Virus record (IMG/VR): IMGVR_UViG_3300035670_000034
Coordinates: 1 to 64,000 of that record
From: a virus
Length of the DNA stretch: 64,000 bases
Direction: 5' to 3' (one strand)
Positions 29,412-56,605 of the stretch are shown piece by piece; positions within the stretch are counted from its first letter, which is position 1; every line of letters begins with the position of its first letter. Both the position numbers and the translations under genes were made by a program. The notes beneath the pieces are model-generated. The model was not told the DNA's origin. It saw only the letters and a list, made by a program, of their open reading frames with translations, and ran no database searches.

Positions 29412-32400
29412 GTGATGCAGGACATTCAATTTAAAGCCGCTAGCGGTCAGTTCAACATTGACGAAGCACAGGGAATCGTTGAGTGCTTTGTGGCGGGCAT
29501 AGGCAACAAGGACTCTGTTGGCGACATTGTTGTTTCCGGCGCTTTTGCCAAGAGCCTTATGAGGCGAAAGCCAAGAGTTGTTTGGGGCCACAATTGGAAT
29601 GACCCAATTGGCAAAGTTTTGGAAATCTACGAAGTTCCGGCAAATGACCCAAGACTTCCTGCAAAAATGAAAGCAGCCGGAATTGGCGGTCTGTACGCAA
29701 AAGTTCAGTTTAACTTGAATTCCGAAAAGGGCAAAGAAGCGTTTACGAATGTTGCCTTTTTTGGCGAAGAGCAAGAGTGGTCAATTGGATACAAAACACT
29801 CGATGCAATTTACGACAACTCCAAACAAGCCAATATTTTGCGAGAAGTTGAACTCTACGAGTTGAGCCCTGTGTTGCACGGAGCGAATCAATTGACTGGA
29901 ACTATTTCTGTTAAGAGCGAAGAAAAGGGACACGGCATGTCACCCATGGGGGTGATTATGCTCGAAGAAAAGCCCAAGCAACCGCAAGACCCATTTTTGC
30001 AAGGTGTTGCGCAACCACTTGAGGGCGACAGGCTTGTGGCGCTGCAGAACGAACTTGCATCGCGAACTGGCGGCCCTGTCAAGGTAATGAAGGCGACTGA
30101 AAGTTCTGTTACGTTCCTCAAGCCTGGCAAGGGAATGTTCAGGCTTGGATATTATTTTGACGGCGAACAATACATGTTTGGCAAACCAGAAAAAATTGGA
30201 ATGCCGATGATGATTAACAAGCCGATGCCACCAATGCAGCGCCCTGGCGCTGGCCCCAAACCAATGCCGAGAATTCCCAATTTCCCCGGCGTCACCCAAA
30301 AGCCGTATTCCGCTCAAGAACCGGCAGTGCCAGTTAAGTATGGCGATTCTGATATTCAAAGTGGATTGTTCGATTCATCAAAATCAGAAAATGATGAGTT
30401 TGTTGGAAAACTTAAAGGAATAATTTCCTCTCTTCAGGAAATTGTTGGAGACGACACCGAAGAGAAAAGTGCCTGGGTTATCCCGTGCAGCATAGAGAAT
30501 GCATTTGAAACTAAGCAAGCCCTAGACCCAGTTTTTGATTATCACAGAATAGAAACGTTCGTTACCGAGGAAGGCATAGTTATTGCATCCCCGCTTGACT
30601 ATGAGGCCTATGAGGCGGTGGAAACTGCCACCAAGGGACTTGCGGGGAGAATTGGTCGCGGGCTCACTCCCGGTGGTGGGGGAAAAGTTAGGCGCGGCAG
30701 GGCCGCGCTAGCCAGAATAGAGGGGGTTCTTGACCCAAGAAAAAGACGTGACGTTGACGGCGACGGAATGATTTTTGATGGCACTTGGATGGAGCAGCCA
30801 GACCCAACGAGATTTGCTGAGCCTGAGCGTGGCGCACTTTCTCCAAGAAGAGGTCGCGGACTTGCCTCCAGCACAGATGATGAGCGACTATACATTCCCA
30901 CAGAAAAACCAGAAACACCCAAAAAAGAAAAAAGAAAAGCAACAGACGAACAAAAGAAGAATAAAAGACGTGCTGGCGGTGGAACGCCGTGGTACATAAT
31001 TGAAAAACAAAAAAACAATAGAGATATTGTTCCTTTCATTATCCCGCGATACTTTAAGCCTCGCCTTGACAGAATGATTGACGACTTCCTGGACACAGAC
31101 GAAGGCAAAGCATTGCCAGAAGACCACATATTGCGAAGAGTTGGAAAAGCAATAAAGACAGCAAAGCGTTATCAGGAACTACAGCCGGAAATTAACGAAT
31201 TTGGTCAGGAAACTGGCTTTACCAGACCAAAGCAAACTTCCGATTTCCTGCCCGATATTGATGAAAAAATGCTAAAAGAACTCCAAGATGTCTGGCCGCA
31301 AATTAGTGATGGACTTGCAAAAACAGGTGGCCATAGGACCAACGAAAAAGGCAATCAAGAAAAGGGTCAAACTGCGTTTGATGCACTTAGTTCACTTATC
31401 AAAAATGGTTCTTGGTCTCGTGTTAATAAACAAACTTCTGGATATATGTCAGAAGAACAGGGTAGGCAAGCAGACGAAGCGTTTGATGATTCTTCGATTC
31501 TTGCCGGAGTAGTTCGCAGGGGGGAAAGAGTTAGAAAGGCTCGCAACGAGGCCGACAAGAGGGGGCAACGATTCCAGCGCGGCGTTGATACGCGAGCCGG
31601 ACAAAGAAGAGCAGATACTGGAAAGAAACGCGTAATTAAAAAAGTTTGGCCTGGGGATTTCCAACACGCGCCATTTGAGTTTCCAACAATAAAGGGCGAA
31701 CAAACAATCTCTTATGAAAAAGTAATTGATGGCAAAAAAGTAGATTTGTTGAAACCCTACATCGATGCTGGGCTTTTCCCAGAAAATTGGAAAACAATGA
31801 GCACTGAAGAGAAGTTTGCTTGGTTTAATGAAAATCAAAAAAAACTTGAAAGCATAAAAGAAACTAGAACAAGTCCACGGTGGAGAAATACAATTGCAAA
31901 ATTAAACGACTTTCTGCTGGAAGAAACCATGAAGGAAGACGAAAAAAGGGAGCGCGCGCTCAGACTTACGGAACTAAGAGATAAGCCAAAGCCCGCTGCC
32001 GAGGCCCCCAAAGCACCCGCTCCGAAGGCACCAGAAAAGCCAAAACCGCAAAAGCCTGCATCAGCGCCAACCGACGGGCCGGACAGGGTGACTTCCCAAA
32101 CCAAGAAAAAGATAAGAGCATGGGCAGACACAATCGCAGAGGCTGTCAACTCATCGGGCGTTGATGGTGACTTTGCTGATACCGCATACGACGGAGCGGA
32201 ACGGGTTTTTTCAATTGCGTTTCCCGATGATTCAACGCCACTAACAAGAGAACTTGTTGACGATGCCCAGGAAGAACTTGACAATGTTATTGCAGAACTC
32301 GGCAGCATCGCAAAAGAAAGAAAACTCACGAAACGTGAGAAGTCAACTCTTCAATTCATGTTCCAGGCAAGAAAATTCCTGGACGAACCATTTGGTGACA

Positions 32401-33089: not shown

Positions 33090-33226
33090 TGTTCAACTAC
33101 CAGAATTGCAATAATTCACGACAGAAATAATTTGGGTGAAGTATAATTTGTGAAAACGAATCTTTACACAGCGAGTCGACACGGCGCATGCTAATGTCGT
33201 CACGTCGATAACAAGGAGCCGAAACA

Positions 33227-34582
33227 ATGGAATACGACAAGAACGCAGTTGTCAAGTTGGATACCGATGGTTCGGTGTTGAAGTGTGCGAAGGGCGCCGA
33301 TGCTGGCTCCTGTGGATACACACCAGGCGCAAAGGTGTGCGCAAAGTGTGGCGCTATTCCGCTTCAAATGAAGGCGATGCCCATGTCGGATGAAGAGGAA
33401 ATGGACGACCAGGAAGAAATGGTTGATGCAGAGGAAGAAACCGAAAAGGGCTGGAGCAAAAAGAAGAAGCCCATGAAAATGAAGGCTGCTCCAGATGACA
33501 TGGACGACGAAGATGAAGACGAGGAAGACGTTGACATGGAGGCAGGCGACTCCGAAGAGGAAGACTCGGATGAGGAAGACGTTGACGTGGAGGCAGACGA
33601 CGAAGAGGAAGACGAAGAGGCTGACTCCGAAATGGAGCAAATGAAGTCAAGACGCCTTCGCACCATGGGCTACAAGAGCGCCGATGTTGGCGCAAGAGGC
33701 TATCTTTGCGCAATTGACCGCAAGGTTTACCCAGGTGGACAGCCAGTATGTGATGACTGTGTTGGCGGATGCATGGCAGAAAAGGGAATGCCAGGACTGC
33801 TTCATGTAGAAGGACTTGCAGAAGACATGTTTGACGGAAAGGTTCTTGACTCTGGCTATTCGGCGGAGGCAGACATGTTCGTTGTTGATGTCGAGGCCAA
33901 GGATGGTCGACCGGTGGAAGTCTTCATTGACGGCACTTCGGCAGAAGTTCTCGGTTGGCACAAACTTGATAACAATGCTTTTGAGCAGAAATCACTTGTT
34001 GATGAAATGATGCTCATCGACTTTAACGATGCTGCAGACATTGCAACCAAGTCAATCCAGGGCCATGTTGTGGCAGTGGAGCCAGATGTCTTCGAGGGAT
34101 ACGACGCATACGCGGTTGAAATTGACGGCATCGACGGCAAGTCGTATGACGTCTTTGTTTCGCTTGACGGCGAAGTTCTTGGCTACGACAAGTACGAAGA
34201 GGAAGATGCGCAGGCGATTGAAGCCGAGGCTGCAGAAATTGCCCTCAAGCGCGCATTTACGCCAGAGCAGAGAGAAAGAATGGCCGAGGAGGGAACAGCA
34301 CTCCCAGATGGCTCATTCCCAATCGGAAACAAGGAAGACCTTGGAAACGCGATTCAGGCATTTGGCCGAGCAAAGGATAAGTCGGCAGCAAAGCGTCACA
34401 TCATGAAGCGCGCAAAGGCACTTGGTGCTGAGGCGATGATTCCGGCAAATTGGATTGCTGGGAATAAGTCAGCCGATGACACTGGGTCAACAACCCTTGA
34501 TGACAACTTTATGTCTCAGTTGCTGGAGTTCGAACTGCTCAGCACAGAGGTTGAAGAACAAAATAAAACACCAGAGTCGTGA
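33227..34582 (+). CDS. Acidic head-module protein (451 aa), scaffold-like
   Basis: SD AAGGAG; Cys-rich N-terminus; D/E tract; two similar beta modules; C-terminal ERMAEEGTALPDGSFPI.N..DL.NAIQAFGRA domain common in phage head modules. Confidence 0.7.
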   Translation: MEYDKNAVVKLDTDGSVLKCAKGADAGSCGYTPGAKVCAKCGAIPLQMKAMPMSDEEEMDDQEEMVDAEEETEKGWSKKKKPMKMKAAPDDMDDEDEDEEDVDMEAGDSEEEDSDEEDVDVEADDEEEDEEADSEMEQMKSRRLRTMGYKSADVGARGYLCAIDRKVYPGGQPVCDDCVGGCMAEKGMPGLLHVEGLAEDMFDGKVLDSGYSAEADMFVVDVEAKDGRPVEVFIDGTSAEVLGWHKLDNNAFEQKSLVDEMMLIDFNDAADIATKSIQGHVVAVEPDVFEGYDAYAVEIDGIDGKSYDVFVSLDGEVLGYDKYEEEDAQAIEAEAAEIALKRAFTPEQRERMAEEGTALPDGSFPIGNKEDLGNAIQAFGRAKDKSAAKRHIMKRAKALGAEAMIPANWIAGNKSADDTGSTTLDDNFMSQLLEFELLSTEVEEQNKTPES

Positions 34583-34599
34583 CCGACTACTAGAAAAAG

Positions 34600-37500
34600 G
34601 TGCCTGCCATGCAGGAACATAGGCTAGTTGTATCCCGAACTATCACGAGTGGCAGATTTTCTCCAGTAATAGAAAAATCAATTCGTGAACGCATTGAGGA
34701 CTTTGCTGAAGTTCGCCAACTATTAAGTCTTTATCCATTTTCCGCTGACTATGCAGTGAAGGCGGCAATGGGCGGCTCAAAGAGAACCGGCGGAGCGAGA
34801 AACCCGGCAGCAGATAATAAGGCAAAGCGTCAGAAAGAACTTAATTTTCGTCGACTGGGGACTTATTGTTTTGACCCAAAAGCAACAAGGAAGCCGAATC
34901 AATACTTTGAAACAAAACCGCGTTTCAATCTTGATGGGCAAATGGGTGATGTCGCGAATGTTGGGTGGCTAGATGTACCAAAAGCAGTTGAGCCAGAAAA
35001 TCTAGTCAAAAGAGCAAATGAGTTTTACGCATCTCAGGCGGGCAAACCAAAAATAATTGCGCGTGCAGCAAAAATAAACAAACGAACAGGACAACTTGAA
35101 GCAAAAGCCCTTGGGCAGCCAATTGGCCGGGTAGCAGGAAACATCGGTCAGGCCGCAGCAAGGGCAATAGGAATTGTCCTGGACCCAAGCGGAAGAATGC
35201 GTTGCCCGCCTGGTGTGCCTGCCGCAAATCAATTTACTGATGAAATTGGAAGTAACTGCTTTGACTTTACGCCCGCAATTGGTAGGGCAGTTATGAATAT
35301 TGTTCGCAGAGCAACCCAATCAATAATTGACGATGTCAACAAGATTGACGGTGCTTTGCCGATAGTCAGAAATGAAGATGGAAGCATTTCTGAAGTTTCA
35401 GCAGAAACTGCATCATTGATTCGCGGTGGACTACGAAGTTCAACTGGAACCATAAGGGGACCACGCGGAGAATTGCTTGGACCCGACGGCATGCCCATAA
35501 GAAGACCAGAGCCGCCTGCACTCCCAGACGTCACCCCAGAGTTTGATAGAGATGTTGCCGATATAGCATCACGCTCTAGAGCAATACCACCAGAAGAGTA
35601 TGAAGAAGTTTTTGAAGGAATGATTAGGCGCGCCTATCCGGAACTTTCACTTAGCGAAGTTAAAAGATTGGCAAAACAGGCTGTCCGAAGACAAAGAATG
35701 AAGGACAAGCAAAGAGCAGATGTAAAAGAGGTTCTTGATTTTGCCAGCAGTCTCGGCATAGAGATAGACCCAACCGACCCCAACTCGGTTCAAGATGGGC
35801 TAGCAAAAGTTCTCAACGCCCTAAAACAACCAGAAAATGGCGCCTGGGACATCAATCTCAAGTCATATTTTGGAAATAGATTTGGGTCGGGCGACATGTC
35901 GGTGGCCATGCTTGAACACAGGGCAAGACAACTTGAATCGATAATTAACTATGCAATTACAAATCCAGCAGCATTTGGTATGGATTCAGAGGAATTTAAA
36001 TCACTTATTGTCTCAAGGTTCGGTGGAAGTCCACAACGCCTTCATGACGGAATGCTTGAAGTTCTCACGGGAATAAAAAGCATTGAAGAAGTCTTTGGCT
36101 CGGAACCAAGAGCAAGAAGTCTTTTTGCTTCAATTGTTAAAAAGCATAATCAAATGCGAATGCAAGAGGCCGGATTGCTGATTGGTTTAATAAATCAACG
36201 TCGTCGAAATCCGGAACTCACAAAAGACATGCACACACTAAGCATTCTTGACCCGTTTGATAGACGTGGGGAAATGAGCGACGCAATAACTTATGTGGAC
36301 CCTAGAAAAAATGGATACGGGATGCATTTAAACCCGCTTGCAACGGTGATGCAAAGTGATGAGTTCATGGGCGGACCTACACCTGACTACATTCTTTTTG
36401 AACCAGATGGCGCAGCGGGAACGGAAGTGGCAAAACTTGCCGCAATTACGTCCTCCCTTGATGCACATGGAGCGGCAAGAGCAAAACAAGCATATTTGTC
36501 GGAATTGCAAAATATTGATGTGTACCAAGAGTCAGTGGGAAGGGGTGACGGCTGGCAACAGTTTGACTTATTGCAAAACCTCGGTCAGGCCGGCTCAGGA
36601 ATGTACATTATGGCCCACGAAATGGTGCATGGAAGACAGTTGATGCTAATTCAAAAGTATCTAAAGTCCATACCTGGCCTTACGGATTCAATGACAAACG
36701 AAGACATAATTCAGTTGTCCCAAGACCTGCTTGCTGGGGACCGTAAATTTCCAAGCGTTTTTGGTCATGATTGGGATTACTCATCAATAATCTCAAATAA
36801 AGATTGGCTTCCATCGGCAGTAGAAAACATGCCAGAAATTATTCAAATATTACTCCGGAAAAATGCCGGCGGTAAGTATGCAATGAATCAATATTGGCAC
36901 GCAGCGTTTACTGACCCATTTTTGAGCGCGAAATCGACAGACGAACTATATCTACATTTGAATAATTTACGTCAAAAAATGGAGACGATGGACCCAAACT
37001 CAACCCAATTCGAACAAGCATTATTGGTTTTCAATGAAATGGCGCAAATATACAATTCTGGGGACATGGGAAAGATGCAAGCGGCGTTTGCATCACATAA
37101 ACAAAAATCAGCGCTTGTGTTTGCCGAAATGCAAGCAGAATTAATGGCTGGCATTGAGTCTGGGTTGATTGAAATGACGCCTGAAATAGAAGCATTTTTG
37201 GGTCCGCTCGCACCAGGTAGGGATATCCCATCAGATTTTGGAATAGTGAATCCAGACGCAAAACCAGTTGTGGCAGTAACAAGGGAAAGCATAAAAGAGG
37301 GAATCAAGAACACAATAAGTATCCGCAAAAACATTGAAAGAGGAAAACGCAAACTTCGCGAAAGAATGGCGATGAATGATTTGCCGGACTCAATCCCAGG
37401 ACTTGGAAGTGATACCACTGGTGATTCGCGCAGAATATTCGACGCACTATCTGGAGTTGCGTCAAGAACGGATATGTCAAAGCGTGGATTCTTGGTGAGA

Positions 37501-40500
37501 GAAGCCGTTCTCGATGCAGCCACAGAGCAACAAAAACAAATTTTGTCAGGAAACTGGCGTGATGCTTCCTGGAACACGTCAGACCCGGTCGACTGGGGCA
37601 GGGCTCTGCGTTCGAGGCCGGAAGATGTCGTTAACGCGGTAGAAAATCAACTAATTCCATTTATGGATTTAATTGACTCCTCAGAAGTGCCAACTGATAC
37701 GGTTGCCGAAGTTCAACTGCCACTTGGCTCACTTGGTTTTCCTGGTGACGAAGGGGGTTCAATGCTGTCTGTGAACAAACACTTCACGGCCGTAATGCAC
37801 TCTGCTGAAGACGCTGATTTTGGTGGTTCCGAAAATGCAGAACGAATTCTATTGCTCGTGCCAGAAGGTTCGACTGGACTTCCCGATTACACCCCAGGAA
37901 CGCAAAGGGGGGAAGTTGGCTCCCTCATAATGCCACCAGGAGACATAGAAATACTAGGCAGGGCAGATGATGGGGCGGTAATAGGAAAAGTTTCATCGCA
38001 AAAACCAACAAGCCAACAACTGAATGAATTGCGACAAGTTCTTCATTCTCTCGGCTCGAACGAATCGATGCCGCTTGGAAAGAGGATTGTCGCCAAGCGG
38101 GCTGAAAACAGAATTGAAAGGCGCCAAGAGGCATCGCGCATTGGTCGAGCGCAGGCGGCAGTGGCCATGGAAATGGACCCAAGAAATTCAAGGTTGGCTA
38201 GACAAATTGAATATGACCCACAAACACGAACGCTTTCCGTCTCATATAGAAATGGCCACAAACGCGAATTTCAAAATGTTCCGTATGGGAAAGTTAGAGA
38301 TGCGGGCGCCTCAAGTTCTCCCGACAAACTCATTAGAGAACTTGAAGACATTCCCCAGGAATACAACCCAAGCGCTCCGCTACCAAGAAATTTTGGACTT
38401 GCCTCCAGTACTGTTTCGCAAATCAATGAATCAGCCAGAAAACAAAATGCCAGACAAAGAACAGTGGATATTTTGGCACGTGCTGGAGATATTGGTGTTG
38501 ACATAGACAGACAGGAAAGAGAAATAGTTCCAAGAATAAAAGAACAAATATCTGACAATCTCAAGTATGCACGCGAGCAGGTTCGACTTCTGGATATTGA
38601 CCAGGACACTGCAACACTCATAAGACAAAGTGCCGCAAACGGCATGTCAGATTCAGAAATATTACGCAATGTTGTTGGAGGAAGATTCGAAGACAATTTT
38701 GCATCACGACTGTCGATACTCAGGGCGGTTGCGGAGGGCAAGGGCGATACCGAATTGGTTTCTCAAATTGATGATTTTGTAAAAGATATTTCAGATATGA
38801 GTGATGACGAATTCAAAAAAGCCTACGAGGAAGCACTGGAAACTTTTACCAGCCCGTTTGATGACAGGCCAGTTGTTTTGGTGAGAGACCCACTTGCGAT
38901 AGTTGGAAGAGGTAGATATTTAACAACCCATGAGGGCACAAGAACCATGGGCGGAACCAATACATTTGATGACGACACGGTAAGAAACGCAAGAATGGCA
39001 ACAGAATCAATGCTATTTGGTTTTAATGGAGACACAGATGTAGACACGCAGGCTTTGCGTCCATCAAGTGGTTTGACTATGAGCAAGCACCACTCAGAAG
39101 ACAGGGCGGAAAGACTGAGGGCAATTTACGGCGACGGAGTTGAAATACAACACAATTACCCCACCGCAAGCACCGCAGGGCAGAATGTTGCGACCACTGG
39201 AAGTGGCAAAAATGCTTCATCAACAGGCAGGGCATATGGCGACGTTTCCATAATCCTTCGCCCTGAAACATCAGACAGAACACTCTCGGTTAGCGGTGAT
39301 TCAATAAGCGGAGTCAGCACCAGTGGCTCTGATGTGCTGGAGCCAAGCGGAAAACTATCGAATATTGCCAAAGATGGAAAATTGGCATCTACGTTTTTTA
39401 ATCCCGCAGCAGTAATTTTTGACGCAAGAACAAACAGGAAAAACACCATTGCGAGCGCGGCTCAATCAAATAGAAAAACATACATTGAAAGCCTTACTTT
39501 GGGAAGTTTTGAAAATCAAGATATTCAAGCCATAGTTGGCGGTGCACAGCAACTTCGCGGCGACAAAATATGGCGCGCCGACGAATCAACAATGAGCATG
39601 TCGGGGGTTAACCCGAGCGCAAGTTTCACAAGCATGATTGGCGCTGCTCGCACTAGAGACGACATGCTCGAAAAATACGGGATAGACGTTGTTCCACAAA
39701 GTAGATTTTTTGACCTTGACGAAGTTGAACCGTTTAACGCCTCGATGACAGAAAAATGGGTTGAAGAAAAAATCAAAAAAGGTGATTTTTCAAACGTTTC
39801 CGCATCTGACTTAATACCAAACGAAAAAACAACTCCATACGAGGCTCTTTTGCGCTACCAAAAGAGAAGAGCGGAAAACGATGGAGAATTTCCGGTATTT
39901 GACCATCCAGACAATGCTTCAGGATTTGATGATGCAAGCAAAGCAAAGAATAGAGCAAACTTCATATCCATGGTGGACGAAGAACTCAAACGAGTTGGTG
40001 GTGGGGGAAGTGACTCCACGACACGCCGAAGTGCTGGCCTGGCCTCCTCAACGGAAAATTATGGTTCTGAAACCATAAAAAGAAATATTGAGAGAGCAGA
40101 CGAAAGAGTAATAGAGGCGGACAGACGGGTTAGCGCCCTAGAAAAAGCACTTGACCATCTTGAAAAAACAGGTGAATGGAGGGGGGAGGATTTTGGTGTT
40201 TCGGCATCAATGGACCCCAACTACATGGGTGATGTTGACCTCTTCGATAGCACGGGAATAAGGAACCTATCAAAGGCCGAGGTGGAGGAATTAAACATTG
40301 GCCTAGATGGTCTCAAAACAAAAGTTCGCAAGAAAATACAACTAGCCAAAAAAGAACGTGTTTTTCAAGAGCATTTAGCAAAAAGCAAAAAGAAACGACA
40401 TTCTCAAAATGTGCTTGACGTAGAAGACATACCAGACGAAGAACTCGATGTCTTGATTAAAGAAGCATTGGATATGGCCGACATGGAACCAAGCGCCAAA

Positions 40501-43719: not shown

Positions 43720-44177
43720 CCATGAAATCAATACTTGTCGGGAAAAAAGGAAACAACAGGGTTTATTTTGTGGTCGACTCGAATAGCCAGGAATCAGATG
43801 GAATTGTTAAAAATATTGTTGGAGACACAGAAGTTGTTAATTTTTGGCAATATGTTGACGACAATCCATCTATGCACAAAATTAAGGGAACGGTCTTCCA
43901 CGACTACCTTTGGGACGGACATCAATCCAAAACGGGAGTTCACTGGTATTCTGTTTTTGTAAGCAAATCTTTGCCGATAAGTGATAATTTGCTGGATGGC
44001 GCCATAGTCAACAAAGATATTTTGCGCCGTATACCAAAGTCACTTGATTACGAAAATAGGGCAATGGATTTCAAACTGGCCAAAAACACTGGGAATTGGT
44101 CGCAGAAAATGATTTCGCATTGGATAGATAACCCAAATAGGCAATTTAAAACCAAAAAACGAAAGAAAAAGAAGTGA
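43716..44177 (+). CDS. Hypothetical protein (153 aa)
   Basis: 4-nt overlap with the giant gene. Confidence 0.65.
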   Translation: MTMKSILVGKKGNNRVYFVVDSNSQESDGIVKNIVGDTEVVNFWQYVDDNPSMHKIKGTVFHDYLWDGHQSKTGVHWYSVFVSKSLPISDNLLDGAIVNKDILRRIPKSLDYENRAMDFKLAKNTGNWSQKMISHWIDNPNRQFKTKKRKKKK

Positions 44178-44833: not shown

Positions 44834-44834
44834 T

Positions 44835-46901: not shown

Positions 46902-49900
46902 AAAAGTACGCATTACTCAAAAACATTTCAAAAGGAATTAACTTTGGAATTGTTGTCAAGTCAGAAAACGGATACTCCTTTTACGGATGGAGCGACAAGG
47001 GCATTGAATGGTCAAAATGGGCCAATGAGAATAACGGCGGGCTAAAAGACCTTCCAGTGGGAATTTCTGTCAGCGAATTTAAGTCTCTCTCCGAAGAGAT
47101 GATGAATAAAATTGTCATCAATACAAAAGACGCTGTTGCTGCTGGGTCCGGATTGCTCAAATCGGAATCAAGCATGGTGCTGGTGGAATCAGAAAAGTTT
47201 CCAAATGCTTCCAAATTCCCTTCCGTAACAAACAGCCGTATTTTGATTGGGTCAACCAACAAGAAAACTTCTGTTGCCTATAAGGCAAAACATTTTAAGC
47301 ACTCTATTGCGCGAAGCGAGATTGCTTTTAAGGTAAGAAATAATGAACTTGCATTCAACCCCAAAACAAAACAATTTAACGCAAAACCAAACAGGGCTTC
47401 GCAATTTGCAGAGAGAAACAATATCCAGTCAAAGATGTCGCGTGGAGCAGAAAGAAAGTTTGGCGAAAGAGTTGTCAAATCTATTAATGACCAAGTATTT
47501 GAAACCGAAAAGGTCAAACTTACCAAGCGCGACAGCGTTGGCGTAAACACAAAAGAGGTAGTTGAGTTCTTTGCAAAGGGAAGACTTGGCTATACAATTG
47601 GTCGCGCCGGCAGCGCTGCTGTTCGCGGAATTACCCCAAACAGACGCACTCGCGGTGCCGCTTCGCGGGTAATTGCTGGAGTTCTTGACCCAAGAAAGAG
47701 AAGAGACGTCGACGGCGATGGAATGATTTTTGACGGCACCTGGCGAGAAATGCCAGACCCAACCAGATTTGTGAATAAGCCCGAAAACTTCAGTGGGGGA
47801 TTGGCTCGCCGCAACAGGGAGGGGGCTGGGAGGGTTGTTCCGCTTCCGAGTCGAAGTAACGACGATAGGGGCGGGTATGCGCTATTGAGCAGCACTCAAG
47901 GTGAGCGACAGCGCCCGAGAAATATTACCCAAACTGCAGCGGCTGGAGGTGGAGACGGTCCAAACCCGCCACGTGTCGCAACTGCACGACTGATGAGAAT
48001 GGACCCGAAGAATTCTCGCCTTGCAAGAGAAATGACATATGACCCACAAAATGGGGATTTTACCGTCAGGTACAGAGATGGTCGTGTCGAAAAATTTACT
48101 GATGTTCCATACGAAAGAGTCAGAAAGGCTGGTTTTGATGACAAGCCAGACCCGTTAATCACCGCGCTAGAAAACGAGCAGAACAAGAAGCCAAGTCGCC
48201 CGATGGGATTAATGTCATCGACTGACAAAACACCTTCATCGAAGAAACCAAAAGTTGTTAACAGAACTTCATTTGTTGAACCGAATAAGGGAAGTAAATC
48301 TTCCACAAAAATGACGATGGAACGAGCCGCCGACATTCTCGGTGATATGACCAAAAATTCTGAAGACCGTGGTTATGGTGCATGGGATGAGGCAATAAGC
48401 AAAGTCTTTGGCACAGACAGAACGGATATGACCGGATTCCCGAGGCTCATATCAAATATTGGCGCTCGAATTGACCAGGCCATAAATTCTCCGTCAATGT
48501 CCGATGAAAAAAATAAATCAAAACTGAAGACGTGGACAAAAATTGTAAACGACGTTGCCGATTCACTCTCTCCAAACGAGGGCAGATTCAATGCAGATGC
48601 CATAAGCGAATTAGCAAAGTTCATTGATGATGTTTGGCTAAACAGAGACGCCGACGCAAGCGCCGTTATCAGGGCGTTTGACCCAGATGACAAAAATTCC
48701 AATTTTGCAACCGCGATTGAAGCGGTTATGGCGTATTCGCTGGGCAAATTGAAGGACGCAAAATCTCGTGGCCTATACATGGACGGCAGAGGGAGAAAAT
48801 CAAGAACCGGAAGCGTTATAGACGAAATTCTTGATTCTGCTGGTGGGGCGAACGAGCCAGAACTTGCACGAGGCCTCAACAAGGTACGACGGGGAATGAC
48901 GCTAAATTCAGAAGAGCGTTCCGGCCTTCTCGAATCATTGGACAATATTAAGAAAAATAATGAAGATTTTGATGGCGATTCACGTCTTGATGACCTTATC
49001 GACGAAGTTAACTCCCTCGGCGATGGAGGCGACATCATAGATGATTTGCTTACTGCTGCAGATGGTGCCAACGAGCGAGAACTGGAAAAGAATCTTAAGA
49101 AAGTTAGAGATAACAGAAAACTAACCCCGCAAGAACGAGCAAACTTGCTCGAAGATTTAAGAAACACCCAGAAGAATAATGATGATTTCAGCGGCGACAA
49201 GAGACTCGAAAAACTAATTAACGATGTTAAAAAGGGTGATGACCGTGGCGGCCTCGCGTCTCGGACTTCTGGGCCGGATGATGACGACTCGCGAGAAGAC
49301 GCATACATTGAATCAAGAAGAGAAAAAGAACGTGAACAATTGCAGGGTGTCGCAGATGATATGGCAGAAGATGCGTACATTGAGCAACAGAGAGAGTCTC
49401 GTGGTCTGTCATCATCCACTTCTTCCCTAAAGCCAAAGCCATCAAATCCACAAAGAAACAGCGATGGGAGTTTTGTTAACGTCTTCGATGATTTTGAAAC
49501 GGATGACCTTTTTGGCCGTCTAGGTCACCACAACAAGATAATTAAGCAATTACAAAAGTGGCTGGATGGTGACGGGCCTTTCCCAAAGTCGCTGAACGAT
49601 TGGTACCGCGACCGTGACCGCGCTGAAAAATTTCTTCGCGAATCTAGACAAGAACGCCTTAAGGTAATCAAAGCCTTAAAGGACAGGGGTTACGAAAGTC
49701 CAAATGAGGCAAGGAAAGAATACAATCGTTCCAAGAAAAAGCCAAAAAGTGATTCCCAAAAGCCGCTTACCTATTTGCCATTAGATGCTTTGCCAGATGT
49801 TTTGAGACGGCTCAAGGACAATTTGGATAAAGAAGACAAACCCTCTTACAGGCCACAAAGAGAAGACAAACCCTCTTATAAGCCACTAATTAACTCAGAC

Positions 49901-52900
49901 CTACTCAGTTCTTGGGATGATTTTGCTGAGCAAAGGCCTGCGATGGTCTACAGAGGGAGCGGGCAAAAGCGCCCATCACGTGGACTTGCATCTTCCACCG
50001 ACACAAATAAGCGTGGCTCGATAGTCAATGAACTAATCGATTCAGCGCGCGGCGCAAATGAACCAGATTTTGAAGCCAATCTAAAGAAATTCCGCTCTGG
50101 CGCTGACTTAACCGATGATGAGCGTTCAAGTTTGTTGGAGTCACTCAACGATGTTAAAAATAATAATGCCGACTTTAGCGATGATGCGCGTCTTGACGAT
50201 TTGATTGAGCAGGTTGGCGGAAAGAGCGATACCGAAGACGCCATAAACGCAATCAATAAAATTAGGCGTGGACAAATGCCAACACCAGAAGAAAGAAAGA
50301 GGGCTCTTGCATCTCTTAAATTGATGCGTTCGCCGGATAAGAATCTTAGCGAGGATGAGCGCGACACCATCATGGCGTTGGAAAAGCAAATTTCAGGTCT
50401 CAAGTCGAGCACCGAAGATGATGGTGCAGATATCGACGATGCAATTAAAGCAATCGAAAAAGTCAATCGCGGTGAAAGACTTACCCCTGACGAAAAACAA
50501 AAGGCTCTTAATGCCCTAAAACTTGCCAGGACGCCAGACAGGGGGCTCAGTGAAGACGAGAGAATAGGCGTAATGGATATGGAGAAGCGGATTTCACAAT
50601 CCGCTTTGGCATCCAGAACAACAGGCCGCTCAACAAGAAGGCCAGTTGAACAACCGCTGTCAACAAGAATGGCTATGGTCACAACAGAAAGAGCGAGCAG
50701 GCCAAGGGGACTTGCATCAACAACTGGCACTGACGCTCGCACTGAAGCACCAAAGAAAGATGCCAAACCAAAGAGGCGCAGTCGTCTCATTATTGATATG
50801 GTCGACAATTTTGGAAAAACCAAAAAAGATGGTGACGGAGAACTTTGGGAGTCGATGTCCGACGAACAAAAGTCTCAAGCAAAAGAAGCGATTGCAGCAC
50901 AAAGGAAAGTCATCGAGGACAGACTCAAGACAAAATCATTTAAGGGTTGGTGGCAAAAAGCCGAGCAAGGAAGCGACAAAGAGACACTGCGCGCAGTAAA
51001 GAAGCGTGCCAAGGGTCAAGCCGGCGGCACATACGAGGGAAGACCCAAGGACGACCCACTAAACAAAAATGACGTTCAAGACCTTCTTGTGGTTCTTGAT
51101 GATGCCGTTGCTAAAGGTCGAATTAAGAAATACAAACTCAATGATGACGGAACAGTCAAAACTGATAAAGATGGAAGGCCGATAATGACGGAGGCCTATT
51201 CGCGTGCAGCGAGAGACCTTGACGACCTTCTCACAATTCTGAACATGGAAGAAGAGGGTGATTTTTCGGCGCTTGAACATTTCCATACCGGAACAAGGGC
51301 CGCAATTCACAAAAAAGTTGGAACCACCGCAACCGGAAAATTCAAAATGGGCGATTCCTCAATCGCTGGCCAGGCGGGCGGCCTATCAAAGGCGCAAAGC
51401 GTCGAGGAACTCAGCGATGTCGACCTTGGCAAAGCCAAAAAACTCTCCATTGGCCGCAGACTGCTGCGCGTCAATGAAAGGCGTGCCGCACGAGCACGAC
51501 AGCGAGCACTGAGAAGACAGGGTGCTTTCAGAAAGGGAAGAATCCTTACATCGGGAGACCCCGAACTTGAACTAAAGAGAGCACGCCTGCGTGCTCGCGC
51601 CCTGAAGAGAACAATGGTTTCGAAATTCAGAAAGTCAAGAGATGCCGACGGACTCTCAAGGGACATGAGCAAGGCAAAGGCTGAGGTTGGAGCGGTAACA
51701 ATTGATAACGATGGCAAAGTCACAATAACACCACGCTATGTATCGATGCTTTCCAAACTTGGCGGAGAGTACAACAGAGCAAAGAATGTTGGCGATGACG
51801 ACGCAAAGAGAAAAGTGTTTGACCAATTGCTTGCAGACCTGTGGGTGAACAGTGGAATGTCTGGAGAACCAACACTAATCACCGAAGATGAAGCGCGAAA
51901 ACTGGTTGCCGCTGGCTGGCAGCCAGTGATTCGTGGAACTGGTAGTGAAGAGGTAAACAGCGAGTCTTATGTTGAACAGTTTTTGACGAACAAGGAAGAA
52001 CTGCGATTCATTCCGGGCCAAGGCATGAGGGCATACGGCGTTGGCGAATATTTTGCATTCCCGGGAAGCAACTGGAGCGGATATAGAGGAACCGGGGACC
52101 AAAGACACACCATTCTTGCCCTCATTCCACCAAGTGCCGACATTGTCAGTGTTGGCGAACTTACCCGCGAACGAGACAAGATGCGCGATTTGACTTCCCG
52201 TGCGGTTGATGCGACCAAAGCACTCGGTGGGCGTGATGCCGCTGCTGCACTCTCACCTGGAGAACTGGCTGAGGCTTACAGAAAGGCGTTGCCAAATCTT
52301 GATGCAGAAACATCGAGAAGTGGTCAGATTGTGAGCCAACTCGTGCAAAGACTTGAAGAACTTGACAAGATGCCAGCATCTGATGAGGCAACAAAAGAGA
52401 AGAAAGAAATTTTGGGAGCATTTGACTACCTGCAAAGTTTCACAAGACAAAAGGATGTCGGCTACTTTGCGCCACTTATCGGTGTTGACGGAATTGACAC
52501 GAACGATAACACTGGAACAGGTTCGCCATTCTTGTTGCACAACAGAGCAAATGTTGCCGCTGTGCTCAGGCCGCTAACCAGCGACGAGGCAGAGGGCCTC
52601 GCAAAACAGGAGAATGGTGGCTCCGTTGGAAACATTTGGAGAAACTGGAAGACAAGACCAGATAGAAGCCGCGAGGGTGCAGCAATTGAGGACCGAAGAA
52701 GAGTTCTTGTTGGCGGCAAGAGAAGACGCCTGTCGACAAGACGTCCTGGCTCAGATGGCGGTGACTCTGGCTCATCGGCACCCGATTCCCCAGCACCAAC
52801 ACCACAAAACGTAACGCCAGTTTCAAAGAGCGCAGTAAACACTGACTCATGGAAGCAAGGAAGACCCCAGTCAGTTGGCTCAAATCCAGCAACTCTTCTT

Positions 52901-53518
52901 ACTGACCCAAATGGAACCACCTATTACACAAAACTAAAGAAGGCTGGCGAAACAACGCAACAGGCACGCGAGAGAATGGAGACCGAGGTTCTTGCCGGAA
53001 AACTGTACGAACTTGCCGGAGTTCCGGTTGCTGACCTTCAAATGGGAACAAACAATGGCGACCCTGTCATGTTGTCCAGAATGATTCAATCAAGAATGCC
53101 ACAAGGCGCTGGTGACAATAACGCCGCTAGAGACGGTTTTGTTGTTGACGCTTGGTTGGCCAACTGGGACGCCCCACTAAATGACAACATTAAAATCGAC
53201 AACAACGGCAGGGCGGTCAGACTTGACGTTGGCGGCTCCCTCGACTACAGGGCGCAAGGCGCCAAAAAGGGGAGCGGAGGAAGCGTTTCTTTTGGAAATA
53301 GTGTAGGCGAAATGACATCTCTACAAAAAAGAGGAAATATTGACTTTACCGCAATGGATGCAAATGAACTAAAGAAGCAGGCTCAAAAATTAGGAACAGT
53401 AACAGATGACCAAATTAGAAAAACTGTATCTGCGATAGTTTCTGACCCTGCACGTGCAAAAGTTCTTGCTGATACACTCATTGCTCGCCGCGACGATATT
53501 GTGAAACGATATGGGTGA
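46898..53518 (+). CDS. Giant polyvalent head-module protein (2206 aa): DxDGDG module, KTSC-like, helical repeats, ART-like, C-terminal HipA/PI3-4K-like kinase
   Basis: RDVDGDGMIFDGTW (47681-47770); KTSC-like (47993-48176); five helical repeats; GMRAYGVGEYFA; YYTK...ETEVLAGKLY...WLANWD...RLDVGGSL. Confidence 0.85.
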   Translation: MKKYALLKNISKGINFGIVVKSENGYSFYGWSDKGIEWSKWANENNGGLKDLPVGISVSEFKSLSEEMMNKIVINTKDAVAAGSGLLKSESSMVLVESEKFPNASKFPSVTNSRILIGSTNKKTSVAYKAKHFKHSIARSEIAFKVRNNELAFNPKTKQFNAKPNRASQFAERNNIQSKMSRGAERKFGERVVKSINDQVFETEKVKLTKRDSVGVNTKEVVEFFAKGRLGYTIGRAGSAAVRGITPNRRTRGAASRVIAGVLDPRKRRDVDGDGMIFDGTWREMPDPTRFVNKPENFSGGLARRNREGAGRVVPLPSRSNDDRGGYALLSSTQGERQRPRNITQTAAAGGGDGPNPPRVATARLMRMDPKNSRLAREMTYDPQNGDFTVRYRDGRVEKFTDVPYERVRKAGFDDKPDPLITALENEQNKKPSRPMGLMSSTDKTPSSKKPKVVNRTSFVEPNKGSKSSTKMTMERAADILGDMTKNSEDRGYGAWDEAISKVFGTDRTDMTGFPRLISNIGARIDQAINSPSMSDEKNKSKLKTWTKIVNDVADSLSPNEGRFNADAISELAKFIDDVWLNRDADASAVIRAFDPDDKNSNFATAIEAVMAYSLGKLKDAKSRGLYMDGRGRKSRTGSVIDEILDSAGGANEPELARGLNKVRRGMTLNSEERSGLLESLDNIKKNNEDFDGDSRLDDLIDEVNSLGDGGDIIDDLLTAADGANERELEKNLKKVRDNRKLTPQERANLLEDLRNTQKNNDDFSGDKRLEKLINDVKKGDDRGGLASRTSGPDDDDSREDAYIESRREKEREQLQGVADDMAEDAYIEQQRESRGLSSSTSSLKPKPSNPQRNSDGSFVNVFDDFETDDLFGRLGHHNKIIKQLQKWLDGDGPFPKSLNDWYRDRDRAEKFLRESRQERLKVIKALKDRGYESPNEARKEYNRSKKKPKSDSQKPLTYLPLDALPDVLRRLKDNLDKEDKPSYRPQREDKPSYKPLINSDLLSSWDDFAEQRPAMVYRGSGQKRPSRGLASSTDTNKRGSIVNELIDSARGANEPDFEANLKKFRSGADLTDDERSSLLESLNDVKNNNADFSDDARLDDLIEQVGGKSDTEDAINAINKIRRGQMPTPEERKRALASLKLMRSPDKNLSEDERDTIMALEKQISGLKSSTEDDGADIDDAIKAIEKVNRGERLTPDEKQKALNALKLARTPDRGLSEDERIGVMDMEKRISQSALASRTTGRSTRRPVEQPLSTRMAMVTTERASRPRGLASTTGTDARTEAPKKDAKPKRRSRLIIDMVDNFGKTKKDGDGELWESMSDEQKSQAKEAIAAQRKVIEDRLKTKSFKGWWQKAEQGSDKETLRAVKKRAKGQAGGTYEGRPKDDPLNKNDVQDLLVVLDDAVAKGRIKKYKLNDDGTVKTDKDGRPIMTEAYSRAARDLDDLLTILNMEEEGDFSALEHFHTGTRAAIHKKVGTTATGKFKMGDSSIAGQAGGLSKAQSVEELSDVDLGKAKKLSIGRRLLRVNERRAARARQRALRRQGAFRKGRILTSGDPELELKRARLRARALKRTMVSKFRKSRDADGLSRDMSKAKAEVGAVTIDNDGKVTITPRYVSMLSKLGGEYNRAKNVGDDDAKRKVFDQLLADLWVNSGMSGEPTLITEDEARKLVAAGWQPVIRGTGSEEVNSESYVEQFLTNKEELRFIPGQGMRAYGVGEYFAFPGSNWSGYRGTGDQRHTILALIPPSADIVSVGELTRERDKMRDLTSRAVDATKALGGRDAAAALSPGELAEAYRKALPNLDAETSRSGQIVSQLVQRLEELDKMPASDEATKEKKEILGAFDYLQSFTRQKDVGYFAPLIGVDGIDTNDNTGTGSPFLLHNRANVAAVLRPLTSDEAEGLAKQENGGSVGNIWRNWKTRPDRSREGAAIEDRRRVLVGGKRRRLSTRRPGSDGGDSGSSAPDSPAPTPQNVTPVSKSAVNTDSWKQGRPQSVGSNPATLLTDPNGTTYYTKLKKAGETTQQARERMETEVLAGKLYELAGVPVADLQMGTNNGDPVMLSRMIQSRMPQGAGDNNAARDGFVVDAWLANWDAPLNDNIKIDNNGRAVRLDVGGSLDYRAQGAKKGSGGSVSFGNSVGEMTSLQKRGNIDFTAMDANELKKQAQKLGTVTDDQIRKTVSAIVSDPARAKVLADTLIARRDDIVKRYG

Positions 53519-53921
53519 GGAAAATATGGAAAAAAAGAGAGATTACGAGGCATATAAAGCCGCAGAAGCAAAAATGGAGAAGATGGAGCGCGAATTGCAC
53601 CAACTTATTGAGTATCCTCCCTTTTCAGAGATAGACGATGGAAGTGGCGATGAAGATTATGACGGATTGAACCCCAAATGGGGATTTCCGGACCTAACCG
53701 AAAGAGGATTGCAACTTCAGGAAGCAGTGAAAGACGCAATCAAAGGAATGAATGAGGAAACCGCTGGCGTCGACTACTACGACGTTGACCCTTCGGTTAT
53801 GGCAAAGTGTTTTACTAAAGTTTTTGATGAATTCAAAGATGATATTGAGGAGGCTCGCTTGTATGCAAAGCGACACCCGGGGAATAACATTCCCGCCCTC
53901 AAGGCTTACAAAATGAAGTAG
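53511..53921 (+). CDS. Acidic hypothetical protein (136 aa; start may be 53526)
   Basis: Overlaps the end of the kinase-bearing gene; D/E-rich. Confidence 0.65.
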   Translation: MGEENMEKKRDYEAYKAAEAKMEKMERELHQLIEYPPFSEIDDGSGDEDYDGLNPKWGFPDLTERGLQLQEAVKDAIKGMNEETAGVDYYDVDPSVMAKCFTKVFDEFKDDIEEARLYAKRHPGNNIPALKAYKMK

Positions 53922-53922
53922 G

Positions 53923-56556
53923 TTGCCCATGGCGGCAGAAGAAGATACGAACTCAAAGGTTTTTGCACTTCGTGCTGCTCAATGGATTGGGTGTTCTGGG
54001 GCACACAAAAAAGACGGCAAATGGATGCCGTGCGAAACACACGAAGAACTTGAAAGAATTTCCAATGAAGCGGAACCCCAAAAAAAGACAGGTTTTGAAG
54101 CCCTCACCGAAAATTATACAAAGCGCAAGGCAAAGGGTAAAAAGAAAAGAAATCGCGGTTGGGAAAAACTAAAAGAAAGAAAACCGCTTGGTTTTGCGAC
54201 GCTTGAGGGTGGGGGAATAGTTTCTGCCCCAATCGTTGCCTTTCCAAACGTAACCCTTGGCAACAAGTCCTATATTCCCGGAGTATCTCCAAGAGATAAC
54301 GACCCAGACGTATTTACTGACATTGAGTCGGCGCGCAAACGCTCAAGAATGCTTGGCTGCATCGGCGTACGAAGAATGCCATCGTCAACTGGTCGAACTA
54401 TATGGATGCCATGCACAAACAATTCTGATTATTCACGTCTTGCCGGAACAACGTTTCTTGGAAGAAGAAATCAACGAGAAGCACAACGGAGAATGATTAG
54501 AACAATATTGCGTCGCGAAATGGCAAATAACAACAGACGGAACAAAATTAGAAAGAAATCATTATTTGATGAATTAAACGAAACAAAAGGAATTGGTAGG
54601 GCGATAGGTAGAGCCGCTTCTGGAAACTCATTGAGCAGAAGATTAAGGCGCTCAGTTGAAAAAATTGAAGGAGTTTTAAATCCACTCGAACGCCGAGATA
54701 TGGATGGGGATGGCTTTATTTTTGACGGCACATGGCGGGAAATGAGGGCGCCAAGATTGGCCAGTTCAACCGGGGAGCGACCAGAAATGGAAAAGCCTTC
54801 ATGGGTTTCACCAACCGACAATAGATGGATGAAACCTGCAAAAATCGGAAAAGGTGGACCATTGAAAGCAAGTGAACTGCTTAACTACGACAGATTGAGA
54901 ATTAGAAAAAACAGAGACGAACAGGCTCGAGTCCTCGGAGTGACCAGAGACGTCATAGACGCAATGCACGAGCCGGATGCATCAATAGATGCGTTCGATG
55001 CCGACAGGTTGACAATGTCCGCACTTGGCCTTCACCCAGCGTTGATTTGGGGAGAATCATGGCTTGATGCCGACAAACAACCAAAACCCGAAAAACCTAT
55101 TCGAATAGCAAAAAGAACTGGAAAGCCAGACCAACGCTCTGTTGTGAACGCAAAACGCCGCGACCTAAACGATAGGGACAGGCAAGTTCTTGAGATGCGA
55201 AGAAATGGTAAAACGCAACAAGAGATAGCGGACGAAATTGGAGTAAGCAAGGAGCGGGCAAGACAAATACTTAATGCCGCCATAAAAAGAAACGAAGATG
55301 AAATCGATAAAAATGATGGTCTTGCGTCATCGACTAGTTCCGACCCAATTAACAGACCTGGTCAAATCCCAAGGGATTCGCGCGGAAACATTCTAAAACA
55401 AGGTGATAGAAGAAAAGAAACTCTTGATAAAACCATTGAAAAACTCAAATCAATTGGATTTACCCAGGAAGAAATAAATTTGTTAATGACTGGAGATGCA
55501 GGAACTCCAGTTGACACGGCAACGAGAGATGTTGATATCGCTGCGGCAAAAAGAGGTTCTTTGGCCAGCAGGACAACTGGCCTTGCGTCAATGACATTGT
55601 CCGAAATGGCGCGCACAAACTCATCCGAATGGGCCCAAAATCAAAAAACCCACATAGTCGACTGGGCAAATTCGCGCCCATCATTCAACGTTCCATACTC
55701 TCTTGCTCAGCAATACAAGAGAGACGGTGACCTGAAAGATTCCGAATGGAAAAGATTGCTTAGGTTCTACACGCAGTATGGCCCGGAAAACAGGGGTTTG
55801 CGCTCAACAACTGAAGCAAATCCATTTGAAAATGTCGGCGCAAAAAGAATGGCAAAAATTATTCTTGACAGAGTAAGACAGGATAAGAGAAACAAAAAAC
55901 CAGGTGAAAGAACCCACTATCACGTTGTCGGACCGGGCGCTGTTGGCAAAACAACATTAAGAAAGTATCTAGTTGAACAAGGAATAATCCCCGGGGATAG
56001 CGAGTCAGCCCATGTTGACCCAGACTTCATAAAGCAGGGAATTGAGGGGTACAACGGCGGCGCTGGTTCAATGGCAGTTCATAGAGAATCCGCATATTCC
56101 GCCACAAGAACTGTTAACAATGCCGCAAATGAAGGGATGGACATCGTCACTGAAGGGACCGGATACAGATTATTTGAGTACAAAACAACAAGCGACCCCG
56201 CCTACAAAAAGGTCCTACATATCCCCTATCTCTCATTTGACGAAGCAGAAAAAAGACTCAGAAAACGGAATGCAGAAGGTAAGCGGCAACTTCCCGAAAG
56301 CCAAATAAGAATAAAGGGTCAGCAATTTTATGGATGGCTTGCCGACCACATCCAAAGGGGCGAAGTTCAAGATATGTATATCTGGGATATGGATGTACCC
56401 AAAGGTGCTGCGCCAAGAGTCATCGCAAAAATAGAAAATGGTGTGTTTAGAGCAATAGACGAGCCGGCATTTAAGAAGTGGTCAGAACAATCTGGCGGGC
56501 ACAGGGGTGGCGACGCAAACCTCGCATGGTTCAAGAGACGTTTTCCAGAAAAATAA
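53923..56556 (+). CDS. Head-module polyvalent protein (877 aa): duplicated Cys motif, DxDGDG module, HTH, C-terminal zeta-toxin-like P-loop kinase
   Basis: GCSGAH..WMPC and GCIGVR..WMPC; RDMDGDGFIFDGTW; sigma-70 region 4-like HTH (KTQQEIADEIGVSKERARQIL); GPGAVGKT, HVDPDFIK and DIVTEGTG. Confidence 0.8.
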   Translation: MPMAAEEDTNSKVFALRAAQWIGCSGAHKKDGKWMPCETHEELERISNEAEPQKKTGFEALTENYTKRKAKGKKKRNRGWEKLKERKPLGFATLEGGGIVSAPIVAFPNVTLGNKSYIPGVSPRDNDPDVFTDIESARKRSRMLGCIGVRRMPSSTGRTIWMPCTNNSDYSRLAGTTFLGRRNQREAQRRMIRTILRREMANNNRRNKIRKKSLFDELNETKGIGRAIGRAASGNSLSRRLRRSVEKIEGVLNPLERRDMDGDGFIFDGTWREMRAPRLASSTGERPEMEKPSWVSPTDNRWMKPAKIGKGGPLKASELLNYDRLRIRKNRDEQARVLGVTRDVIDAMHEPDASIDAFDADRLTMSALGLHPALIWGESWLDADKQPKPEKPIRIAKRTGKPDQRSVVNAKRRDLNDRDRQVLEMRRNGKTQQEIADEIGVSKERARQILNAAIKRNEDEIDKNDGLASSTSSDPINRPGQIPRDSRGNILKQGDRRKETLDKTIEKLKSIGFTQEEINLLMTGDAGTPVDTATRDVDIAAAKRGSLASRTTGLASMTLSEMARTNSSEWAQNQKTHIVDWANSRPSFNVPYSLAQQYKRDGDLKDSEWKRLLRFYTQYGPENRGLRSTTEANPFENVGAKRMAKIILDRVRQDKRNKKPGERTHYHVVGPGAVGKTTLRKYLVEQGIIPGDSESAHVDPDFIKQGIEGYNGGAGSMAVHRESAYSATRTVNNAANEGMDIVTEGTGYRLFEYKTTSDPAYKKVLHIPYLSFDEAEKRLRKRNAEGKRQLPESQIRIKGQQFYGWLADHIQRGEVQDMYIWDMDVPKGAAPRVIAKIENGVFRAIDEPAFKKWSEQSGGHRGGDANLAWFKRRFPEK

Positions 56557-56605
56557 GACGTCTATTTACATACATTCGTTTGCCAAGTTTTATTGGTAGT
56601 TCCAC

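Follow-up and report, generated by a model that had tools for sequence, protein, structure and literature searches.

The window analysed here, the first 64 kb (64,000 nucleotides) of the IMG/VR record IMGVR_UViG_3300035670_000034, a single 136,198-bp contig from an uncultured phage, raises the question of why one short peptide should recur in giant proteins encoded between a prohead protease and a capsid protein. This protease-to-capsid interval is filled by about 23 kb of giant genes and, as judged from sequence, around 30 enzyme- or toxin-like modules appear to be strung by the peptide into five giant proteins, which are read here as virion-associated. The peptide, G-L-x-S-[S/R/T]-T in this genome, is most likely a fast-evolving, genome-specific cleavage code, which would divide virion-delivered polyvalent proteins into their modules and also direct cutting of the tape measure protein (TMP). 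The reading preferred here, with a rough probability of 0.4, is that the peptide is a proteolytic processing signal read by an HExxH-bearing, zincin-like domain of a 3039-residue protein (zincin-1), in preference to the S78 prohead protease.

A six-residue peptide is enriched in giant head-module proteins

The pattern scanned, [GASR]-L-x-S-[SRTM]-[TS], was taken unchanged from an initial annotation of the window, which had listed 22 copies, and all 22 were reproduced at exactly the codons given. Four lie in the protease-headed polyprotein of 1225 residues (29412..33089), where they span 30858..32708 (GLASST at codon start 30858, GLSSST at 32586, GLRSST at 32619 and GLASSS at 32691). The 3039-residue polyprotein, p3039 (34600..43719), holds five (codon starts 35428, 38395, 40036, 41557 and 42445), the 2206-residue polyprotein, p2206 (46898..53518), holds eight (47879, 48206, 49250, 49403, 49982, 50396, 50603 and 50708), and the 877-residue polyprotein (53923..56556) holds five (54754, 55318, 55558, 55579 and 55795). 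All four genes are on the plus strand. In composition-shuffled versions of these proteins the expected numbers of copies are 0.03, 0.16, 0.15 and 0.03, respectively, against the observed 4, 5, 8 and 5, and none of 5000 shuffles per protein attained the observed count. Consistent with the free codon variation also claimed in the initial annotation, the invariant Ser is spread over all six Ser codons and the Leu over all six of its own, while the motif 18-mers have a mean pairwise DNA identity of only 54%. It is therefore the peptide, and not the DNA, that is selected.

A scan of all open reading frames (ORFs) of the contig found, beyond the 22, eight copies in a 3355-residue protein (contig 80836-90903, locus L162:2837-12901, outside the window), two in the TMP and a single copy in a 437-residue ORF, the motif being almost absent outside these proteins. 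The TMP (1647 residues; 9239..14182, minus strand) carries GLASSS at residue 55 (codon start 14020) and GLASST at residue 667 (12184-12167). It is rich in Gly, Ala and Ser, and 25 of 5000 shuffles attain its two copies. The 437-residue ORF lies beyond the baseplate genes (516-1829, minus strand) and has no Pfam match; its lone GLLSST, at residue 93, may be chance. In an unbiased k-mer count, words of the L.S[SG] type ranked first among the repeats of many of the clade's giant ORFs.

The copies lie in linkers between effector-type modules

An AlphaFold2 model of the 877-residue protein was built on 15 homologues. All five motif copies fall in stretches with a predicted local distance difference test score (pLDDT) below 50 that separate confidently predicted domains (residues 210-307, 459-497, 533-555 and 622-636), as expected if the peptide is carried by disordered linkers. 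A 983-residue segment of p3039 was modelled with a mean AlphaFold2 pLDDT of 72, and both of its ends, beside the flanking copies, are disordered. Flank hydrophobicity, a crude proxy for disorder, agreed only moderately: the mean percentile was 0.30, and 60% of copies ranked under the 25th.

Moreover, the copies bracket recognisable modules. They divide p3039 into segments of 276, 983, 541, 501, 290 and 418 residues, and its DEDDh (RNase_T) exonuclease module (residues 2371-2561; 41710..42282; Pfam PF00929, E 1.4e-12; PHROG 192) sits between copies at residues 2320 and 2616. Similarly, the Sigma70_r4 helix-turn-helix (HTH) segment of the 877-residue protein (residues 414-456) lies between copies at residues 278 and 466. 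Both KTSC-like modules terminate directly at a motif copy, and the zeta-like domain and the HELGH region are each placed after the last copy of their protein. All of these borders had been drawn in the initial annotation, and they stand.

The effector-type modules with Pfam matches are RNase_T, KTSC, sigma70_r4, Zeta_toxin and DUF3721. The 983-residue segment of p3039 (residues 283-1265; 35446..38394) combines a helical HExxH domain, a C3/VIP2-type ADP-ribosyltransferase (ART) fold (residues ~935-1135; 37402-38004) and a KTSC-like domain (Pfam KTSC, residues 1197-1233). The ART fold aligned over residues 653-853 of the 983-residue model with the ART domains of C3, VIP2 and CDTa at Z 14-15 (VIA-align). 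Weak Foldseek matches of this segment to full-length Certhrax and anthrax lethal factor had a very high root-mean-square deviation and are not interpretable; Certhrax and anthrax lethal factor likewise combine an ART-like domain with other domains. The helical domain contains HEMVH at residue 673 (36616-36630) with a conserved downstream Glu, and is the domain termed zincin-1 here. A second HExxH, HELGH at residue 2854 (zincin-2), is found in the C-terminal segment of p3039 (42463..43716), which has homologues of 28-29% identity in the relatives G001 and G003. With two further sites in the 3355-residue protein, the motif-bearing proteins contain four HExxH sites. In the 877-residue protein the C-terminal module (residues 631-877) is a zeta/AvrRxo1-like kinase, the model of which matched AvrRxo1, zeta and PezT in Foldseek at E 2e-6 to 3e-5. 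The C-terminal 930 residues of p2206 are conserved, and its last 600 residues (window 51695-53515) give a weak PI3K/PI4K- or HipA-like kinase lead, with an Atlas score of 0.81 only.

The protease, 2206-residue, 877-residue and 3355-residue proteins also have in common an anchor of 35-40 residues (…DP.KRRD.DGDG.IFDGTW.E…). It occupies residues 431-470 of the 1225-residue protein (30702-30821; alignment of 24 homologues), residues 254-295 of p2206 (47657-47782) and residues 244-277 of the 877-residue protein (54652-54753), and in these three the gap from anchor to first copy is 10-35 residues. In the 3355-residue protein, where the anchor lies at residues ~45-75, the first strict copy (residue 129) is about 55 residues downstream. 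By analogy with the T4 internal proteins, the anchor would suit a design in which a chain is targeted to the capsid and then released. The N-terminal 277 residues of the 877-residue protein (53923-54750) include two DUF3721 units, each of the form G-C-x-G…W-M-P-C with paired Cys. No other part of the chain is conserved as widely as these residues (95 loci), which may therefore form a structural or head-incorporation domain.

These features suggest a common plan. Each polyprotein would open with a conserved N-terminal part, which in four of the five ends in the shared DxDGDG anchor, and the anchor would bring the polyprotein into the head. The anchor also closes off the conserved unit of the S78 protease, and the protease may serve here as the carrier for one chain. 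Behind the first copy would come swappable, copy-bounded cargo, namely the ART, DEDDh exonuclease, HTH, KTSC and zeta/AvrRxo1-like kinase modules and others, and a phage endopeptidase reading about six residues would cut each linker as well as the TMP sites.

The peptide takes a genome-specific form

The capsid protein recurs, at 66-96% identity, on more than 280 IMG/VR contigs and the protease unit on more than 430, and hundreds of uncultured relatives hold the peptide at the same positions in a genome-specific form. Across the clade the gene order portal, S78-headed chain, p451 (an acidic 451-residue protein), p3039-like protein, …, capsid is kept. In distant members the S78-headed chain reaches 3000-3900 residues with 10-15 motif copies, and fused giants headed by S78 were found in L122, L125, L129, L138, L154, L159 and L160. 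In the alignment of the 877-residue family (15 homologues) the copies stand at fixed positions, in keeping with the suggestion that they track domain gain and loss. Indeed, short homologues that do not have the three internal modules retain a single copy, ahead of the zeta kinase. In each of the five chains the segments at the two termini recur widely among relatives and the internal ones sporadically, and the alignments support a pattern in which modules are gained and lost between motif copies. Modules also shift between chains, the kinase-like end of p2206 being part of the protease-headed chain in L113 and L117.

The form of the motif differs among genomes and is uniform inside each genome across three or four proteins. 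These genome-specific forms, or dialects, are rGLASST in the window, RGL[AS]SST in G003, [ST]LRSSG in G001 and G002, LRSGG in G005, rRLASGR in G004, GFxSRT in L111 and L113, RLSSG in L125, L129, L138 and L160, and RFSSG in L154. What stays constant across dialects is a hydrophobic position, usually L but in some cases F or M, followed two places on by a Ser. Genomes that differ in dialect have capsid proteins 89-96% identical to that of the window. The combination of near-identical capsids and divergent dialects means that about 30 sites have changed in concert, without homogenisation at the DNA level. Such a concerted, genome-wide dialect in turn points to one genome-encoded reader of about six residues, which is most plausibly a site-specific protease.

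The TMP takes part in this pattern. Its homologues bear the dialect of the genome they come from, with copies close to the N-terminus (residues ~41-57), mid-protein (residues ~570-770), or at both places. The TMP of a GFxSRT genome, for example, has two copies of GGGFASRT, that of an R[LF]SSG genome has TRFSSGA and KKLSSGA, and that of G001 has AALRSSG and SLRSGG. The GLAS[S/A] strings of the TMP had initially been entered as a caveat to the motif. This concern is not borne out, as the TMP copies follow the dialect and are thus genuine members of the system. Because they track each genome's dialect, the reader would act on a tail protein too, and cutting would probably take place where head cargo and TMP are both accessible. 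It would then occur at least partly outside the sealed procapsid, for instance in the next host following ejection.

Which enzyme would read the peptide?

Across homologues, the HExxH region of p3039 that contains zincin-1 is 46-59% identical within a dialect class and 25-37% identical between classes, with G004 on its own. The HExxH and the downstream Glu are invariant in eight homologues (H391/E392/H395/E464, alignment A4). Elsewhere in p3039-p2206 the dialect-matching block pattern recurs in weaker form, whereas no dialect-matching identity blocks were seen in the portal, S78, p451, 877-residue and capsid proteins. Since identity blocks match dialect classes in this region and not elsewhere, the dialect travels with the p3039-p2206 cargo block, and the only peptidase signatures recognisable in the sequence of that block are the zincins. 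The co-variation of zincin-1 with the dialect is suggestive, not decisive, evidence that zincin-1 is the reader. Interchange of L, F and M at the single hydrophobic position would fit the hydrophobic S1' pocket of a zincin, in which case the chain may be cut before this residue; the assemblin analogy would place the candidate scissile bond at S|S or S|G. A more far-reaching version of the zincin-1 reading recalls the strategy of RNA viruses. Here the chains and the TMP would pass into the next host as unbroken threads, to be cut there by the co-delivered, chain-borne zincin. Its six-residue specificity and the 30-odd sites would turn over together between phages with ~90-96% identical capsids, as a private cleavage code that evolves rapidly. 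This version is rather unlikely to be correct.

Several observations weigh against zincin-1 as the reader. Cleavage, its enzyme, scissile bond and timing, and the packaging of the chains are what we infer from the patterns above, and no cut product has been observed. The link between dialect and zincin rests on about three blocks and is confounded with linkage across p3039-p2206. The zincin segment has no PDB profile match and no Pfam metallopeptidase family match at E<=0.01, and the structural match list of the 983-residue segment is filled by the ART domain, leaving the zincin fold unmatched. Neither zincin of the window was found by sequence search (E<=0.1) in the complete genomes G006 and G009; the p3039 homologue of G009 has an HExxH at about the same position. 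The nearest cultured phages, Gordonia myophages with 45% capsid identity, do not have the motif. In addition, S78 is fused in cis to a polyprotein in every clade member, several of the S78-headed chains with 10-15 copies themselves lack a strict HExxH zincin signature, and the L-x-S core of the motif resembles a capsid sequence, [LM]-P-[ST]-G, at the HK97-equivalent cut.

The last three points count equally in favour of the reading first proposed for this locus, in which the S78 protease would cut L-x-S|S inside the procapsid after anchor-mediated co-assembly, freeing effectors for injection in the manner of T4 gp21. The assignment of the protease itself is secure in its Pfam score: the domain (residues 21-165; 29472-29906, plus strand) matches PF04586 at E 5e-10, with 40.1 bits against a curated cut-off of 21, and PHROG 80 at E 7.5e-28; it gave no PDB sequence match. 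Its gene sits in the head module and adjoins that of the portal. Moreover, the conserved protease unit has the anchor at its C-terminal end, the place at which HK97 gp4 is reported to have a capsid-targeting tail (Duda, Oh and Hendrix, 2013), and the same anchor stands ahead of the first copy in three other proteins. Identical S78 domains are never paired with different dialects among the genomes. The HK97-fold major capsid protein (56593..58023, plus strand; Pfam PF05065; likely start M38 at 56704) contains a candidate maturation site, T-L-P-T-G (57124-57138), and the mature N-terminus of HK97 gp5 aligns within two residues of it (K103|S104-equivalent), the L-x-S/T core being followed by a small residue. 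This sequence, [LM]-P-[ST]-G, is kept in 52 of 53 capsid proteins (the window and 52 relatives; the exception is Q-P-T-G). However, it is independent of dialect and shares only the L-x-S/T core with the peptide, and the capsid protein is without GLxSST. The S78 domain, too, keeps 88-98% identity between genomes of the GLASST, SLRSSG and RLASGR dialects, and its alignment has no column that follows the dialect, L103 (RLASGR) serving as a convergent case. Finally, the TMP, a tail protein that is assembled apart from heads, has dialect-tracking copies, one of them mid-protein. Cutting by S78, and cutting inside the procapsid, are both therefore doubtful. The parts of the initial polyprotein and cargo model that hold are effector-rich, multi-domain proteins in the head module and a linker-borne peptide signal at their module borders. 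ELASRT, at residues 215-220 behind the S78 domain, was considered as a self-release site and rejected, as the conserved E-L-x-x-R-[TS]-G at that place ignores the dialect.

Cleavage by some other enzyme appears quite improbable. The three further HExxH sites in motif-bearing proteins provide candidates in zincin-2 and the HExxH regions of the 3355-residue protein, beside an unrecognised phage peptidase or a host protease, and a part played by the host in cleaving a T5 tail protein is known from the literature (Zweig and Cummings, 1973, as cited in bioRxiv 10.1101/2022.09.20.507954). However, zincin-2 is equally divergent in same-dialect and other-dialect genomes (27-30% identity), and a host enzyme would need to differ sharply from host to host despite phage capsids that are 89-96% identical. 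The peptide might also remain uncut, as a short linear motif for Ser modification or for binding a chaperone, the portal or the tube during loading or ejection. An invariant Ser after Arg and Leu would resemble a kinase-type consensus, zeta-like and HipA-like kinase modules are present in the same proteins, and a disordered linker suits any short linear motif; yet one copy per border, gained and lost with the modules, is the pattern of a polyprotein junction, and there is no obvious cause for a modification or binding site at every border and in the TMP as well, so that this explanation is improbable. A composition artefact of low-complexity sequence rich in Gly, Ala and Ser, which the ease of reaching the TMP count by shuffling might suggest, has a practically negligible chance of being right: it is refuted by the shuffles of the four head proteins, by the conserved alignment positions and by dialects that run genome-wide in hundreds of relatives.

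Gene order and other features of the locus

The first ~27 kb of the window encode a contractile-tail module on the minus strand, including the sheath, Baseplate_J and the TMP. The head module follows on the plus strand from 27.3 kb. It opens with the portal protein (673 residues; 27306..29327; Pfam PF04860, E 1e-50), in which a regex scan found no motif copy, followed by the S78-headed 1225-residue protein, p451 and p3039. After the p3039 gene come proteins of 153, 219 and 688 residues, and then p2206, the 877-residue protein and the capsid protein.

The 1225-residue protein is built of the S78 domain, a conserved middle domain, the anchor and a variable extension. The stretch from S78 to the anchor (window 29940-30700) comprises a spacer that is rich in Met, Pro and Gly and varies in length, and a conserved domain of ~100 residues with the pattern …DPF.QG.AQP…EL..RTGGP.KVMKA.ES…GYYFDGE…. 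The acidic p451 (33227..34582, plus strand) is D/E-rich over residues 54-142, has a weak PepSY match and contains no motif copy. It is 82-94% identical across the clade, always directly after the protease chain, and is a candidate scaffold. Matches of its gene in blastn to the jumbo phages Yoloswag, PaBG and Lu11 were discarded, as they reflect D/E-rich low complexity and not homology. The 3355-residue protein is encoded far from the head module. Its HExxH sites are at residues 590 and 2879, its Pfam matches are limited to a weak HTH, and its internal segments were not found in the relatives fetched.

In the Gordonia myophages, nearest in protease as well as capsid, effector genes lie between the portal and capsid genes, yet without the motif. 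The portal-capsid interval of Gordonia phage ChisanaKitsune (L081; NC_071006) encodes an RNA ligase, a VIP2-like ART, a 969-residue HNH protein, lysins and two protease genes. These separate, linker-free genes are possibly the unfused counterpart of the polyprotein design.

Implications and comparison with known systems

If the linkers are cut sites, a few genes would suffice to deliver dozens of effectors (ART, kinases, nucleases and regulators), and the mature products of giant phage proteins that are unannotated, in their thousands, could be predicted from the junction code. A six-residue site that turns over at no fewer than 30 positions, despite near-identical capsids, would be an example of protease-substrate co-evolution of a kind rare in nature, and the set of dialects could supply orthogonal site-specific proteases. 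Sites shared with the TMP would tie head cargo and tail contents into one processing system, which to our knowledge is undescribed; we know of no TMP motif in T5 or lambda that is shared with head cargo proteins. Polyvalent proteins, their predicted processing by zincins, the motif-directed cutting of T4 and phiKZ head cargo and TMP cleavage are already known. Literature searches found no description of the junction motif, of genome-specific dialects, of S78-headed cargo chains or of sites shared by head cargo and TMP.

The closest parallel is with the polyvalent proteins, for which processing by an embedded zincin has been predicted (Iyer, Burroughs, Anand, de Souza and Aravind, 2017; PMC5512222). 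Like these, the proteins of the window are giant, combine in one polypeptide numerous effector-type domains that are unrelated to one another (ART, zeta-like kinase, nuclease and a putative zincin) and are encoded among the late genes of the virion, here from portal and protease to capsid. Delivery coupled to the DNA and cutting into units by an embedded zincin are predicted for the polyvalent proteins and may apply here. They differ in that the published account defines no cleavage signal, whereas here there is a six-residue, genome-varying linker that reaches into the TMP, and in that the chains are headed by the S78 protease or by a shared anchor module. The HExxH regions here matched neither MPTase nor another metallopeptidase family in Pfam scans.

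Among phage head systems, the T4 internal proteins and Alt are cut by gp21, and head proteins of phiKZ and SPN3US by gp175 and gp245 (PMC5694885, PMC10052503, PMC7411985). The likeness would lie in head-packaged, ejected proteins in which a putative targeting region is followed by a short consensus site for a phage protease. Those systems, in contrast, cut single proteins at (L/I)-x-E or (S/A/G)-x-E with a T4-type protease, by a rule that also covers the capsid proteins. In the present clade the capsid site is off-dialect, so that capsid and cargo do not share a consensus site, and copies are not confined to the head, as a tail protein carries them; the proteins are multi-module polyproteins, and the protease is of the HK97 type and does not co-vary with the motif. 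With HK97 gp4 (MEROPS S78) and the assemblins, which cut (V/L/I)-x-A|S, the system shares an S78 domain, an L-x-S-S core that resembles the assemblin rule, and a capsid L-P-T-G at the HK97-equivalent maturation position; HK97, however, cuts after Lys, and the S78 domain here does not follow the six-residue dialect.

Outside the phages, the polyproteins of RNA viruses (with 3C, NIa or nsP2-type proteases) offer the same beads-on-a-string arrangement, with junctions of 5-7 residues and small central residues. There, the protease that reads the junctions is part of the chain and co-evolves with the site. The present system differs in belonging to a dsDNA tailed phage, in carrying accessory cargo and not a replication core, and in having several chains and a tail protein that share one code. 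For the tail protein itself there is precedent, since the TMPs of T5 and lambda are known to be cleaved (bioRxiv 10.1101/2022.09.20.507954), and, as in T5 pb2 and lambda gpH, the TMP of the present phage would be cut at defined sites that part its functional regions.

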